Shown here: in pieces, positions 1,996 through 10,361 of the stretch
How the letters are laid out: each line of letters begins with the position of its first letter
Position numbering within the stretch: position 1 is the first letter of the stretch
Virus genome (UHGV): UHGV-1672225
Length of the DNA: 12,773 nt
Direction: 5' to 3' (one strand)
Source: a virus
Made by a program: the position numbers and the translations under genes
Notes under the pieces: generated by a model
Seen by the model: only the letters and a program-made list of their open reading frames with translations
What the model was told of the DNA's origin: nothing
Database searches by the model: none

Positions 1996-2703
1996 TCACT
2001 TGTCGCCTCCTTTACGAATCTGTTCCGCCCACTCCTCAAGAGATTTCTCCGCATATTCACCGGACAGGCCATCAATCGGATGCGGTTCATTAGCCAACTC
2101 TTCTTTCGCTGACAAAATCATGCGTGTAACGTCGAAAACTTCACGCAAAGATTTATTGATAAATCCGTGATTGAACGCAGCAGCAAGACGGCTGGCGGTA
2201 TAGTTAATCCCCTCGTTGCGTGCTTCCGCACGAATTTCAGCCAGAAAAGCATCGGTGGCTGAAATATTTCCTGTTGCCTTCATGGCCCCCAAAATAACCA
2301 GAACGCCATCTCGCCCAACCTCCTCAGCGATAACCTCGGTGTTGTCGCCAACAACATCGCAGAATGCCTGAACTGCCTTACGAGCCAGCTCATTCTCCGC
2401 CGCCAGCGCCGCACGACTGGCCTCCAGTTCAGCAATGCGTTTGCTTTGTGCTTCCCGTTCATTCAGCAACGCCTGCACTACTTCTGGGTTGAAAGCTGCG
2501 ATATAACGAGCGTTGTTCTCTGCGTTTTTCTGTCCGTCGAATCCTGGCCAGTCGACAATATCTCCGTGATGATTATCTCCTGGTGTGTGCACAGCGTACG
2601 TGCCGTGTTTGCCCGGCGAAATAAATGCGACCCATTCGCCCTGTGTTGCCTGTTTTGCTATCTCACGTAGCGCCTGATAGTTAATTGCTGTGCTGTTAGT
2701 CAT
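1996..2703 (-). CDS. Ea22-like (ead/Ea22 family) phage protein with coiled-coil middle region
   Basis: Start placed at ATG 2703 (GGAGG 8 nt upstream, 4 nt after the stop of the upstream gene) rather than the ORF-track start at 2748. N-terminal INYQALREIAKQATQGEW resembles the recalled Ea22-like signature; an A/E/L-rich heptad region follows. Confidence 0.45.
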   Translation of the reverse strand: MTNSTAINYQALREIAKQATQGEWVAFISPGKHGTYAVHTPGDNHHGDIVDWPGFDGQKNAENNARYIAAFNPEVVQALLNEREAQSKRIAELEASRAALAAENELARKAVQAFCDVVGDNTEVIAEEVGRDGVLVILGAMKATGNISATDAFLAEIRAEARNEGINYTASRLAAAFNHGFINKSLREVFDVTRMILSAKEELANEPHPIDGLSGEYAEKSLEEWAEQIRKGGDK

Positions 2704-3040
2704 TCCAGGCCTCCAGCTCGTTCTGAATCTCCTCGTCAACCTCGTCATTGGTGGCGTCTTCGTTCAGATGGTCGCGCGCCTCTTTGAGATACTGTTCACG
2801 GCGTTCGTGGTACCAGGCTGAGAACTCCGGCGACCATCCTCGATTAGCCCCCTGAAAATCTACCATCGCATTATCCTCGGCCATACGCTCGACCATGCAA
2901 TCCGCGGTGTTCAGTGCAACCTCACGGATGTACCCCCGCAGGTCGCGCTTACGCCAATACGGGCTATATTTTGAGTCGCAGCGGCCTTTAAATTCGACGG
3001 TCCAGCGACGGATGCAGCGTGCGTTAAGTGATTTGCTCAT
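2696..3040 (-). CDS. Hypothetical acidic protein (114 aa)
   Basis: ORF with AAGGAAG RBS; tightly packed between the ASCH gene and the Ea22-like gene; no recognisable family. Confidence 0.45.
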   Translation of the reverse strand: MSKSLNARCIRRWTVEFKGRCDSKYSPYWRKRDLRGYIREVALNTADCMVERMAEDNAMVDFQGANRGWSPEFSAWYHERREQYLKEARDHLNEDATNDEVDEEIQNELEAWND

Positions 3041-3042
3041 AG

Positions 3043-3663
3043 TTATGCTTCCTTAATACGCTTAAACTCAATTACCCATACCCACGGGTTAGATAGCCAG
3101 TTCTCTTGCCCGTAAATACCGCGCCAGATATCACCAAAGCCAACGCGATAAACAGCTTCCGGCGGTGTAATCTTGTACGTCACCGGAGATGCGCCTTCTG
3201 CTTTAGCATCTGCCTCGCTCATGTCATGCAGCCGCTCCACACGCACGTCGGTAATTTCCAGCAAAATACGCGAAGCCCAGCGCGGCATGTGAATCGACGG
3301 GGTCCAGCCCTCAGCTGGCTTGCTACTATCTGAGTAATCAGCCTTGTAATCACACAGTTCAGAAGCCAGAGAGACACCATCTTTGATTTCCTGAATGACA
3401 TCGTTATCCAGCCAAAAAGCGTTGAATGTTTCACGGACCCATATGCGATCACCAACGTTACCGAACGGGCATAAACCATGTTCCAGTGCATCCATAACGT
3501 GGGTATAGACACCATTGCGTTTCTTTGTCGGTTTACGGATAACCAGGCAGTTATCGGCCCTGACATTTTTTACAGGTCGGCGAGTCTGCGTCTTCCTGCC
3601 TTCGAGGATGGCCCTGACCATCGCATCATTAAAAATCATGCCGCGCTCTTTCATCTTGCTCAC
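3043..3663 (-). CDS. ASCH (PUA-like) domain protein
   Basis: N-terminal MIFNDAMVRAILEGRKTQTRR and C-terminal VWVIEFK match the recalled YqfB/ASCH signature. Start placed at GTG 3663, which overlaps the upstream stop as GTGA and has GGAGG upstream; an in-frame ATG at 3654 is the alternative. ORF-track ATG at 3726 rejected. Confidence 0.55.
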   Translation of the reverse strand: MSKMKERGMIFNDAMVRAILEGRKTQTRRPVKNVRADNCLVIRKPTKKRNGVYTHVMDALEHGLCPFGNVGDRIWVRETFNAFWLDNDVIQEIKDGVSLASELCDYKADYSDSSKPAEGWTPSIHMPRWASRILLEITDVRVERLHDMSEADAKAEGASPVTYKITPPEAVYRVGFGDIWRGIYGQENWLSNPWVWVIEFKRIKEA

Positions 3664-4025
3664 TTCAACTCCTCCCGACGACGTTCCTGAAGCTCTAGCA
3701 TTGCGGCTCGGAAATCCTGCCACCATTCCTCATCTGCAACGGGGGTGTTCCGCTCCAGCACCTTGTCCGCATCGGCGATCAGGTTTGCCAGAATCTTGTC
3801 TGAAATCTTCGTTACCGGAGTCGTTGGTTGCTCAACCTGCCCGATAGGTTTTATCGTGCTCAAAAGGAGGCGACGGCGGGAAAGTGGTGCCCCACAACGA
3901 CGGCCATCTTCCTTGCGATATGTTTCTTTCGGACCAACACACCAGGTTGTCGGCGTTTCGCGCAACTTCACTCTTTTCTCACCATCATTGGTAATGATTA
4001 TTCCGGTATGGGTTTTGATGCTCAT
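3660..4025 (-). CDS. Hypothetical protein (121 aa)
   Basis: ORF whose ATG overlaps the stop of the upstream wHTH gene (ATGA) and whose stop overlaps the ASCH gene start. Confidence 0.45.
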   Translation of the reverse strand: MSIKTHTGIIITNDGEKRVKLRETPTTWCVGPKETYRKEDGRRCGAPLSRRRLLLSTIKPIGQVEQPTTPVTKISDKILANLIADADKVLERNTPVADEEWWQDFRAAMLELQERRREELK

Positions 4026-4380: not shown

Positions 4381-5448
4381 TCAGGCTTTCAATAGCGATT
4401 CTTTTAGATATCGGGCATCAGCCAGGGCGTTTGGAGTAATCTTGCGAACCCATGCATTACGGGTTGGACTCCACTTAAAGGCGCGTGATTTAAGCAGCGA
4501 ACGAATGTTTGCCTCTGGTTTGCCAGGGAAATAAAACAGGATGCGGTTATCCTCTGGATCTATCTCCATAGAAAAGCCGTCGTATTCTTCGCGCTGTGCT
4601 CCTGTTACAGACTTGACCGATTCAAGCTCCTTAATACGGCTCTGTAGTCGTTTGATTTCGGCGTTATTGTTGCTCAGTGCGTATGAAGGGAATCCGATGC
4701 GCCCACAGAAATCTCCGGCCAGTAACTCTTTGGCTTCGCTTTCTGTAAACCTGAGATCGATTAATGCAGAAAGCTGCTGTATTTGGTCTTTTTTGTATTT
4801 GCGAATGGCCTTATTTGCGGCCTTCATTTTGACGTGTGACTTCATGCAGCCTTGCAGCTTACGAAGCAACTTAAATAGCGCATCAGGATCATCAGACGAA
4901 ATTCCATTACGACCAACACCTGCGGCTTTGCTCTCGTAGTGTGATGCTTTACTTTCGCATTCAACAAACGCTTTTCTGAATAACGCATCAGCTTTAGACA
5001 AACGGCGGCGATGGCCTTTCGCGCTATAATGGTCAACTAAAATCGGCTGGCCTAACGGGATCACATCCAACAGGTCATGCGCTCGCTTATGCGCTACCGC
5101 ACCTTCTTTTCTGGCTTTTTCTGCACGAGCAATATATCGGGCAAGACGCGCGTTCTGGCGTTCCTGATAGGTGTTTACGTAATCATCTCCGCGCTGCTGC
5201 TGTTCAAGCCATGCTTTGCGCAGATCTTCTGTTACGTCCACCAGCTCCGCAGGGATACAACCAGTTTGGGCTTCATAAGAGTAACCATCCTCATAGATAC
5301 GCCCATCGTCTTCAACAAAGAAAAAGGTTTCGTGCTCATCGCTTTTGACCATACGACCATTAACATGGCGTAATAGGTAGCCAGTATCAGTGCTTAACAG
5401 GCTGTTAGGGTTGTTGATCCAGTCAGAAATAATTACTTGTTTATTCAT
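4381..5448 (-). CDS. DUF3560-like protein (355 aa), function unknown
   Basis: Start at ATG 5448 (GGAGA 7 nt upstream) rather than 5529. Central GQPILVDHYSAKGHRRRL resembles the recalled DUF3560 motif; long K/E-rich helical middle region. Confidence 0.45.
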   Translation of the reverse strand: MNKQVIISDWINNPNSLLSTDTGYLLRHVNGRMVKSDEHETFFFVEDDGRIYEDGYSYEAQTGCIPAELVDVTEDLRKAWLEQQQRGDDYVNTYQERQNARLARYIARAEKARKEGAVAHKRAHDLLDVIPLGQPILVDHYSAKGHRRRLSKADALFRKAFVECESKASHYESKAAGVGRNGISSDDPDALFKLLRKLQGCMKSHVKMKAANKAIRKYKKDQIQQLSALIDLRFTESEAKELLAGDFCGRIGFPSYALSNNNAEIKRLQSRIKELESVKSVTGAQREEYDGFSMEIDPEDNRILFYFPGKPEANIRSLLKSRAFKWSPTRNAWVRKITPNALADARYLKESLLKA

Positions 5449-5616
5449 CAGATTTCTCCGGTTTAACCAGGGCGGGTATCGCTCGGTTTCGGGTATAACA
5501 TAGGAAATTTTTTCCCACCTGTAAAGCACTTTTTATATAAATCTATAATTATATATTTATAGATTTTCGATGTTCCCGATGTCTACACACCATCAAAACA
5601 GCTCAAAATGACACTT

Positions 5617-5997: not shown

Positions 5998-6330
5998 TCA
6001 GATCTCCCGTATCGTGACGGGATAAAGCGCCTCTACCTGCTTTTTCTTCATGATGTAGACGTCTGTTCGCACACCTTTAGTGTCGACACAATCAATCGTC
6101 CCATCGTCATAAAACACCATGAAATCAAGTTTATAAACGACACCACCTGGCAGATGAAAAGGCACCTGCATAAGAAACGTCACAACGCGGCCAGCTTTTC
6201 TCAGTAGCTTCAGTTCGCAGTAGTAATCAGCCTCTTTTTTGCTATCAAAAGCGATATCATCGACAACCGTTTTTTTATTGCCGTATTTGCTTTTCCTTGT
6301 CGCTGGTTTGCGAAAGCCGGTATATCTCAT
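5998..6330 (-). CDS. DUF1064 family phage protein
   Basis: YGNKKTVVDDIAFDSKKEADYY matches the recalled DUF1064 signature; ATGA-coupled to the upstream Ref-like gene. Confidence 0.55.
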   Translation of the reverse strand: MRYTGFRKPATRKSKYGNKKTVVDDIAFDSKKEADYYCELKLLRKAGRVVTFLMQVPFHLPGGVVYKLDFMVFYDDGTIDCVDTKGVRTDVYIMKKKQVEALYPVTIREI

Positions 6331-6731
6331 TTGGTATCCCCTGGTACTTCACCAAGACTAAGATCAAACCCAATTTCGTCTTTAACTGACTGCGGCAACA
6401 GCTCCCACGTCTGCGCACACAAAAATTCATCTGTGCCATAACGCTCAACAAAGCGAGCACAATTACTCAGGGGAGGGTGACGAACGGCAATATGCGGAGG
6501 CACACGCCCACCACCAGGCACAACACCGCGATGATGTGGTGCGCACAACCCAAAGCTATGGAAGTGGCAATTCTCATCAACGCTGCCGTAATCAGGATCG
6601 TGATGTAGCTCCGTCCACAGCTCTGGATTCTCAATTTCACGGCCATCAATAATGCAAGCTATGCAACCCACGTGAGTGAGCACCGCTTGTATATAAAGTT
6701 TCTCTTTCTTCGTTGGTGTACGTCCGTTCAT
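6327..6731 (-). CDS. Ref-like recombination-enhancement HNH-type nuclease
   Basis: MNGRTPTKKEK...VGCIACII...HHDPDYG...GLCAPHHRG shows Cys/His spacing resembling the recalled P1 Ref-family/HNH pattern. Confidence 0.45.
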   Translation of the reverse strand: MNGRTPTKKEKLYIQAVLTHVGCIACIIDGREIENPELWTELHHDPDYGSVDENCHFHSFGLCAPHHRGVVPGGGRVPPHIAVRHPPLSNCARFVERYGTDEFLCAQTWELLPQSVKDEIGFDLSLGEVPGDTK

Positions 6732-8141: not shown

Positions 8142-8798
8142 ATGAAAAGCAACGACGAGAACATCAAGAAAGAAATAGGTCTGCGCATTCAGACTCTACG
8201 GAAACAATCCGGCATGACTGCCGGAGATCTCCAGCAAGTCACTGGAATAGGCTTAAGCACCTTGCAGAACTATGAGGCCGGATTAAGACAACCATCTATA
8301 CCTGCCATCAAGAAAATCGCGCACGCCCTGAAAGCATCAGCGCCTTATATCGCGTGCTTAACAGATAACCCGTTCCCACCCCAGAATACTAACGCTCCTG
8401 TTATTCCTGGGCTTGTAGCTATAAAAAATGACATAGCATCGCACGCCGGAGAAAAGCCAGTGCTGGCGATAGAACAGGAGATTCTACGAAGCAAGAACAT
8501 CAACCCATCGTCTCTGTCAGTTCTCCAGAGCAACGATGAGTTAATGTCACCAACAATATCCCCAGGCTCCCAAGTCCTGATTAATACAGACGATACAGAG
8601 ATTCATGAGGGGATCTATGCCCTTGAAGACAGAAATGGCCTGGTTGTTTTGAGGCACTGTAGAGTCATACCGGGTGACAATGCTGTTATGCTGTCAACCG
8701 AAAGGGATGCTGAAATGAACACTAAGCATCTGAATAACGAGGAATTTAAGCGTTATAAAGTTCTTGGCCGCGTAGTTAGTGTTGTCAACTGGTTATGA
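8142..8798 (+). CDS. CI-like phage repressor (XRE-type HTH plus S24 LexA-like peptidase domain)
   Basis: N-terminal LRIQTLRKQSGMTAGDLQQVTGIGLSTLQNYEAG is HTH-like; the C-terminal 100 aa has an S24-like fold pattern; divergent from the Cro-like gene. Confidence 0.7.
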   Translation: MKSNDENIKKEIGLRIQTLRKQSGMTAGDLQQVTGIGLSTLQNYEAGLRQPSIPAIKKIAHALKASAPYIACLTDNPFPPQNTNAPVIPGLVAIKNDIASHAGEKPVLAIEQEILRSKNINPSSLSVLQSNDELMSPTISPGSQVLINTDDTEIHEGIYALEDRNGLVVLRHCRVIPGDNAVMLSTERDAEMNTKHLNNEEFKRYKVLGRVVSVVNWL

Positions 8799-9392: not shown

Positions 9393-9415
9393 CCAAACAC
9401 ATGGAGTCTCGACAA

Positions 9416-10069
9416 ATGACTATCTCTGTAGGTATTTTCAACGGAAAAGGCGGCGTAACAAAATCAACAATTGCCCGTGCTTTAGCAGTTGCTTATGCAA
9501 AGGCTGGCTGGAATGTATGCCTGATCGATATGGATGTGCTTAACGGAACGGTAACGCGTTGGGTACAACGCAGAATGGCCAACAATATCGAACCAGCAAT
9601 CGCGGCGCAGCCGTGCGGCACACCATCACAAGTCCAGAAAATCATCGAATCAGAAGTATACGACCTGGTTATCGTCGATGGCGGTGCCTACGCATCTGAA
9701 TCAGTACCGAAGCTATCTGAATTTCTGGATATGGTTATTTTGCCAACCCGATTCTCTACCGATGACCTGGAAACCACCGTTAACACTGCTCACGGCATCG
9801 TTAAAAAGGGTGTACCAATCAAGAAAATTTGCATGGTGTTTTCCGGCGCGGCTGAAAACGAAGCTGACTATATTGAAGCCCAAGAGTACCTGGCTAATAC
9901 GCCATACTTTGTTGTCGATAAGTACATTCCCCACAAGCCAGCTCTGAGCAAAGCTCAGGATAAGGGCTTAAGCCTCATTGAGTGCTCATACGTTGCGCCA
10001 CGCAAAAAGGCAGACGACGTTATTCAGGGGATTATCAACCAGCTTGAGGCTCTGACTACTGCCGCATAA
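9416..10069 (+). CDS. parA: Small ParA-family (deviant Walker A) ATPase, type Ib partition-like
   Basis: Start at ATG 9416 (GGAG 10 nt upstream) rather than 9401. Deviant Walker A GKGGVTKST, Walker B-like DLVIVDG, about 217 aa. Confidence 0.65.
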   Translation: MTISVGIFNGKGGVTKSTIARALAVAYAKAGWNVCLIDMDVLNGTVTRWVQRRMANNIEPAIAAQPCGTPSQVQKIIESEVYDLVIVDGGAYASESVPKLSEFLDMVILPTRFSTDDLETTVNTAHGIVKKGVPIKKICMVFSGAAENEADYIEAQEYLANTPYFVVDKYIPHKPALSKAQDKGLSLIECSYVAPRKKADDVIQGIINQLEALTTAA

Positions 10070-10112: not shown

Positions 10113-10361
10113 ATGGCCGCACCATCAAAACCACCAAAGAAGAACAGCAAAGGCGTACCGCCATCGATCGAACAACCGCAGGTTTTCGACCCGACTGAAA
10201 CGCCAACCAGAACCAAATCAGGTGGGGCACAAATGGCGTTTAACGTCGACCCTGAATTTAAACGCGAGTACAAAACGTTCGCCAGCTCAATGGATATGTC
10301 ATTGAAAGAAGTGCTGACAAAGTCTTTTGAGTTACTCAAGGCTCAATACAACCAGAAGTAA
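10113..10361 (+). CDS. Ribbon-helix-helix DNA-binding protein, ParG-like partner of ParA
   Basis: 82 aa; flexible basic N-terminal tail, then MAFNVDPEFKREYKTFASSMDMSLKEVLTKSFELLKAQ with a beta-strand/helix/helix pattern; AAGAGGGGA RBS. Confidence 0.5.
   Translation: MAAPSKPPKKNSKGVPPSIEQPQVFDPTETPTRTKSGGAQMAFNVDPEFKREYKTFASSMDMSLKEVLTKSFELLKAQYNQK

Follow-up and report, generated by a model that had tools for sequence, protein, structure and literature searches.

What is the enlarged ASCH-like protein encoded on the minus strand at positions 3043–3663 of UHGV virus genome UHGV-1672225, and on what might it act? Our window (the whole stretch of DNA analysed, 12,773 nucleotides (nt)) corresponds to the early and lysis part of an Escherichia coli phage-plasmid, circular and ~47–49 kb long, and the open reading frame (ORF) in question lies within a tightly packed operon. 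We favour, at about an even chance of being right, a stand-alone enzyme of the ASCH superfamily, YqfB-like in its GK[T]R signature, whose gene is a dispensable accessory of the early operon in a temperate phage-plasmid. Judged by conservation, the gene at 3043–3663(-) is real, because its product gives a full-length profile match to PHROG 874 (E 5.8e-85, residues 20–226 of a 227-amino-acid (aa) ORF), has >8000 word-indexed homologues (100%-identical database entries among them) and, by exhaustive search, is related to 43,237 representatives of 50%-identity clusters at E ≤ 1e-3 (32,115 at E ≤ 1e-10).

The beta-barrel-plus-helices fold of the protein superposes on solved ASCH structures, placing it in the PUA-like ASCH superfamily with the beta-barrel core intact. 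An earlier note on this DNA, which had called the gene an enlarged PUA-like ASCH protein of about 206 aa, was therefore right on structure, and the length holds for the form that begins at GTG. The structural comparison that it had proposed returned the ASCH superposition and no close match to the EVE, YTH or SRA reader domains; these members of the PUA-like superfamily are non-catalytic and, as a rule, joined to a nuclease or another effector domain.

Placement in a structural family by sequence alone failed. Searches of PDB sequences (phmmer and two profile searches) found nothing relevant, an NCBIfam scan of the protein gave no match (the family has no model there) and Pfam ASCH (PF04266) scores 15.0–15.4 bits against a gathering threshold of 21.2. 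ASCH is the sole recurrent Pfam match across the family, and a weak one (38 of 46 members at E ≤ 1; 25 of 141 at E ≤ 0.01). Likeness to E. coli YqfB is confined to the two ends: BLASTP pairs residues 4–29 with YqfB 1–26 (E 0.085), and hhalign pairs residues 134–203 with YqfB 52–102 (E 0.001–0.0035, probability 9–21%). The terminal motifs on which the earlier note had relied thus resemble YqfB at both ends, but are weak by sequence. An orthologue of YqfB would be a single-domain protein of ~100 aa, recognizable by sequence; here we find 203–206 aa, ~100 of them in insertions.

To locate these insertions, a YqfB sequence identical to that of 1te7 was aligned with the window protein and three phage homologues; conservation figures are drawn from 141–145 representatives of 50%-identity clusters. 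The ASCH octapeptide, G22-R-K24-T-Q-T27-R-R29 (3577–3600, minus strand, as are all features of the gene), follows the superfamily pattern GxKxx[E/T/S]xR and is of the GK[T]R, YqfB type (GRKTQTRR in the window, GRKTITIR in YqfB), with G 95%, K 100%, T 98% and R 99% conserved across 145 representatives. K24, T27 and R29 are the equivalents of YqfB K21, T24 and R26. The fourth candidate catalytic residue, E156 (3196–3198), aligns with YqfB E74 in the C-terminal half of the core (residues 134–206, 3046–3264), where LLEIT corresponds to YqfB TIEVT and NPWVWVIEFK to the final strand YVIEFK. Among the 145 representatives K24, T27, R29 and E156 are conserved at 100, 98, 99 and 99%.

Between these ends the protein departs from YqfB. 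The earlier note had described one long insertion; the alignment instead resolves two main ones and a smaller third, accounting for the extra ~100 residues. The first places ~32 aa between R29 and G71, the second ~47 aa between E78 and L134, and the third ~18 aa among the C-terminal helices. Insertion 1 (residues 30–70, 3454–3576) is basic (isoelectric point (pI) 9.6) and variable in sequence, is confidently modelled as a beta-hairpin (39–43, 52–55) plus a short helix, and ends in a conserved CPxG. This leads into the family motif CPFGNVGDRIWVRE (residues 65–78, 3430–3471), whose GD-x-x-x-V segment returns to the common core (G71-D72...V76 aligning with YqfB G36-D37...V41) and which closes with the invariant E78. 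Insertion 2 (residues 79–133, 3265–3429) is variable over residues 81–120, modelled there with less confidence, and ends in an invariant block, P122-S-I-H-M-P-R-W-A-S-R132 (3268–3300), the most conserved in the whole family. Five residues are invariant (K24, E78, R132, R141 and W180), and conservation of at least 90% extends to G22, T25, Q26, T27, R28, R29, C65, P66, G68, G71, D72, W75–R77, E136, D152, E156, G157 and NPWVW.

YqfB, an N4-acetylcytidine (ac4C) amidohydrolase, catalyses with Lys21 as base, Thr24 as nucleophile and Glu74 as acid, together with Arg26 (PMC9599836). A 2026 preprint sorts ASCH proteins by octapeptide into three groups, GKER, GK[T/S]R and GKE(not R), the second of which comprises the YqfB-type amidohydrolases; it also reports that all 19 ASCH proteins tested stripped ac4C from tRNA, with Lys and Glu/Thr essential (10.64898/2026.02.27.708502). 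Because the counterparts of the catalytic residues are conserved at 98–100% in the phage family, and because the family belongs to the GK[T]R group, we infer a YqfB-like amidohydrolase acting on N4-acylated cytosine. A YqfB-type N4-acylcytidine amidohydrolase activity is the most likely one, and the conserved Lys/Thr/Arg/Glu set, as read from the alignment, points to catalysis over mere binding.

Under this proposal the phage protein would hydrolyse the N4-acyl group of cytosine, be it ac4C or a similar N4-acylcytidine. The two family-specific insertions carry the invariant motifs CPxGxxGDxxWVRE and PSIHMPRWASR and may enlarge the surface offered to the substrate. Such a surface could accommodate a polymer, most plausibly host tRNA bearing ac4C, or alternatively an acylated or modified cytosine other than that of the 103-aa host enzyme. 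Candidate pay-offs would be translation tuning, nucleotide salvage or competition between elements. The more specific form of the idea is a polymer-directed 'eraser', in which the insertions would turn a minimal YqfB-type enzyme onto host tRNA ac4C, or onto an acyl or other decoration of cytosine in RNA or DNA; this we hold to be rather unlikely. In E. coli the target would be ac4C at C34 of elongator tRNA-Met, the only ac4C known in that species.

The same element carries a CAU-anticodon tRNA about 2–3 kb beyond the left end of the window, with an MT-A70 family methyltransferase adjoining (1214–1289 and 319–906, respectively, in locus L001). PGAP calls this tRNA a tRNA-Ile and ARAGORN a tRNA-Met. 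Finding it close to a putative ac4C amidohydrolase would be in keeping with a role in translation, but may be coincidence.

Several points weigh against a YqfB-like amidohydrolase. Sequence likeness to YqfB is marginal (sub-threshold in Pfam, no sequence match in the PDB, 9–21% by hhalign), the protein is twice the size of YqfB, and its most conserved blocks, with the invariant E78, R132 and R141, have no counterpart there, which leaves room for a different substrate or chemistry. E. coli has its own YqfB; a further ac4C nucleoside hydrolase would therefore be redundant, of no obvious benefit to the phage. Any enzymatic activity in the PHROG 874 family is, moreover, putative.

Four rival explanations were weighed. 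One is a hydrolase for a different modified base, possibly in DNA, that would serve competition between phages or undo a host or phage modification. BapA, from the Brig3–BapA defence operon, is the precedent, an ASCH-like fold hydrolysing a DNA base decoration (10.64898/2026.02.25.707755). The large conserved insertions and the E78, R132 and R141 absent from YqfB would suit such a role, as would the basic character of insertion 1 and the location of the gene among variable accessory genes. The Lys/Thr/Arg/Glu set is, however, specifically amidohydrolase-like, no nuclease or glycosylase partner is linked to the gene, and PADLOC returned no match for the protein or its two neighbours. BapA itself, compared by description only, shares with the phage protein an ASCH-like barrel used as a hydrolase on decorated cytosine in a setting of phage–host conflict, but differs in having two beta-barrel domains, an essential Asp (D101), a glucosyl-5-hydroxymethylcytosine DNA substrate and a glycosylase partner. 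We therefore regard a BapA-like function as unlikely. The earlier note's related suggestion, that the protein acts on modified nucleic acid or counters modification-dependent defence, finds no positive support: PADLOC is empty, the neighbours are inconstant and our literature searches found nothing on the family, leaving an assignment to defence or anti-defence unsupported.

A quite unlikely alternative makes the protein a non-catalytic reader of modified bases (for example, N6-methyladenine) working with phage DNA methyltransferases. ASCH domains occur fused to, or in operons with, N6A-methyltransferases (Iyer et al., PMC4738411), and a reader function has been proposed for ASCH domains so linked. 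In 22 of 74 viral loci a DNA methyltransferase (MT-A70, Dam or other) is no more than four genes away, a count for which no background rate was computed, and the MT-A70 gene of the same element is ~5.5 kb from the ASCH gene. A conserved nucleophile and acid make such a reader role less likely. Degradation or processing of RNA by a ribonuclease of the ZmASCH type is very unlikely, given an octapeptide that reads GKTR rather than the GKER of ZmASCH and a structural match weaker than that to YqfB. Least probable is virion morphogenesis, whose sole support is an inherited name, that of phage P1 PmgT ('putative morphogenetic function') and of UniRef entries. P1 pmgT is non-essential by CRISPR interference and in earlier knockouts (PMC10695390), the gene sits in early or recombination–integrase regions outside structural modules, and the fold belongs with enzymes or nucleic-acid-binding domains. 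A morphogenetic role is effectively excluded by the first two of these points.

Among known ASCH proteins, E. coli YqfB (PDB 1te7, 9kyf, 9kyh) has 103 aa, lacks the ~32-, 47- and 18-aa insertions and their invariant motifs, and is acidic (pI 4.7), whereas the phage protein is near-neutral to basic (pI 7.7–8.4), phage-borne and below family thresholds in its similarity to YqfB. Across the phage family pI has a median of 6.8 and a range of 4.7–10.3, so net charge gives no clear hint of nucleic-acid binding. The GKER-type proteins (TthASCH, human EOLA1, the TRIP4 ASCH domain and ZmASCH) carry Glu at the sixth octapeptide position, where the phage protein has Thr, and their insertions and partner domains are unlike its own.

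The closest comparison is with P1 PmgT (tblastn 43.5% identity, E 3e-34) and PHROG 874 at large, of the same length class and with the same motifs; nothing of substance differs, this being the protein's own family, and 'morphogenetic' serves there as no more than a placeholder. The family is represented in phages of Escherichia, Salmonella, Pseudomonas, Vibrio, Burkholderia, Myxococcus, Flavobacterium, Microcystis and Salinibacter. Database names are inconsistent, running from 'hypothetical', 'phage family protein' and 'morphogenetic protein' to 'RNA binding protein' and 'ASCH domain-containing N4-acetylcytidine amidohydrolase'. An ASCH reading is not new, since RefSeq already names the protein 'ASCH domain-containing protein' and the family is that of PHROG 874 and P1 PmgT. 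Literature searches found no paper characterizing the PHROG 874/PmgT family, and, as far as our searches show, a very large phage family of YqfB-type (GK[T]R) ASCH proteins with conserved insertions is undescribed. In one P1 isolate (OP279344.1; L003 3995–4783) phd/doc directly follows pmgT. The PmgT of this isolate departs from the family past about residue 180, losing the NPWVWVIEF strand, which by sequence looks like an isolate-specific deletion or fusion.

The biochemical role of ASCH, deacetylation of ac4C in nucleosides and tRNA, was assigned only recently, and here is a family, highly abundant in temperate phages, in which the catalytic residues of the YqfB type are retained. Pfam-based surveys of ASCH proteins are likely to miss it, because it scores below the Pfam ASCH threshold. 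Were the family to remove ac4C, or a similar modification of cytosine, from nucleic acids, this would be a common phage route for editing host RNA or DNA modification; were the polymer-directed form to hold, temperate phages would possess a widespread and unrecognized means of adjusting host translation, or of disabling or attacking nucleic acids that carry modifications. For the present, it is an already annotated accessory gene of a family dispensable in P1.

Where translation of the gene begins affects three residues only. The candidate GTG start (3663–3661) gives a coding sequence of 206 aa (3043–3663, stop TAA 3045–3043), 100% identical to database proteins P0001 and P0002, and shares bases with the TGA stop of the upstream gene (3662–3660) in a GTGA overlap (3660–3663) that would allow translational coupling. 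The alternative ATG (3652–3654) gives a 203-aa form with the family-conserved N-terminus ('MKERG...'). The upstream gene contains, in its final stretch, a Shine–Dalgarno-like GGGAGGAG (3669–3676, minus strand) that precedes the GTG by 5 nt and the ATG by 14 nt; its GGAGG core is 7 nt from the GTG, a good spacing, and 16 nt from the ATG in the window lineage.

Comparison across the family points the other way. Almost all related loci inspected (n = 68) carry an ATG or GTG start where the window has its ATG (3654–3652), typically with a GGAGG-like sequence 4–9 nt before it and often with no in-frame start between it and the preceding stop. More than half of 145 aligned diverse representatives show gaps at the three extra residues (Met-Ser-Lys), and most of the 150 best representatives start exactly at query residue 4. 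RefSeq annotates the identical protein in the 203-aa ATG form (WP_205860825.1). Speaking for the GTG, the close relative vB_YpM_39 has a GTG at the conserved position too, and there annotators picked an upstream, overlapping GTG. The earlier note had judged a GTG start probable from the overlap. The overlap is real, the argument sound and the ribosome-binding site well spaced for it, but these are not decisive against the 68 loci, the 145 representatives and the RefSeq choice, which favour the ATG 9 nt downstream. From the sequence we consider the two starts possible and roughly evenly matched; their products differ by Met-Ser-Lys only.

Two other readings of the locus were discarded. The longest ORF (ATG 3726 to 3043, 227 aa) shares 67 nt with the upstream gene, and only close relatives conserve its N-terminal extension. 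Plus-strand ORFs across 3106–3847 are shadows of the conserved minus-strand gene.

The upstream gene of the operon (3660–4025, minus strand) encodes 121 aa (PHROG 7520) and the downstream gene (2696–3040, minus strand), whose start lies 2 nt past the ASCH stop codon, 114 aa (PHROG 6675); both PHROGs are of unknown function. The window shares 97.7% identity with Yersinia phages vB_YpM_41 and vB_YpM_44, and close relatives of the element comprise circular E. coli 'plasmids' of 47–49 kb and the Yersinia phages vB_YpM_39/41/44. Neighbours vary among the 74 viral loci, with no constant partner gene; they include RecT, RecE/ExoVIII, YqaJ, Ead/Ea22-like, TraR-type zinc-finger and DUF4060 proteins, methyltransferases and integrase, and 4-nt overlaps with neighbouring genes are frequent. 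The typical position is the variable early-left region, running from recombination genes to integrase, with integrase two to five genes downstream in ~30 loci. Many homologous viral loci (L006–L085) lie within 1.5–4 kb of a contig or prophage end, with integrase adjoining. The family may therefore be a convenient way to spot the early-left region of variable accessory genes in temperate phages.

Elsewhere in the window, a CI-like XRE/S24 repressor and a ParA partition ATPase occur together (8142–8798(+), 9401–10069(+) and 10113–10361(+)); this pairing fits a plasmid-prophage lifestyle. A large DUF3560 protein (4381–5529(-), Pfam E 4e-31) matches the primase-annotated phrog_19458 over its C-terminal half (E 4e-37). 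A P1-like Ref-family recombination enhancement (HNH) nuclease (6327–6731(-)) is followed by a DUF1064 protein (5998–6330(-)) with a 4-nt overlap. Downstream of the ASCH operon genes, the Ead/Ea22-like ORF (1996–2748(-)), taken from its first listed start, overlaps the preceding 114-aa gene by 53 nt; a near-identical RefSeq record uses a later start, with an overlap of 8 nt.
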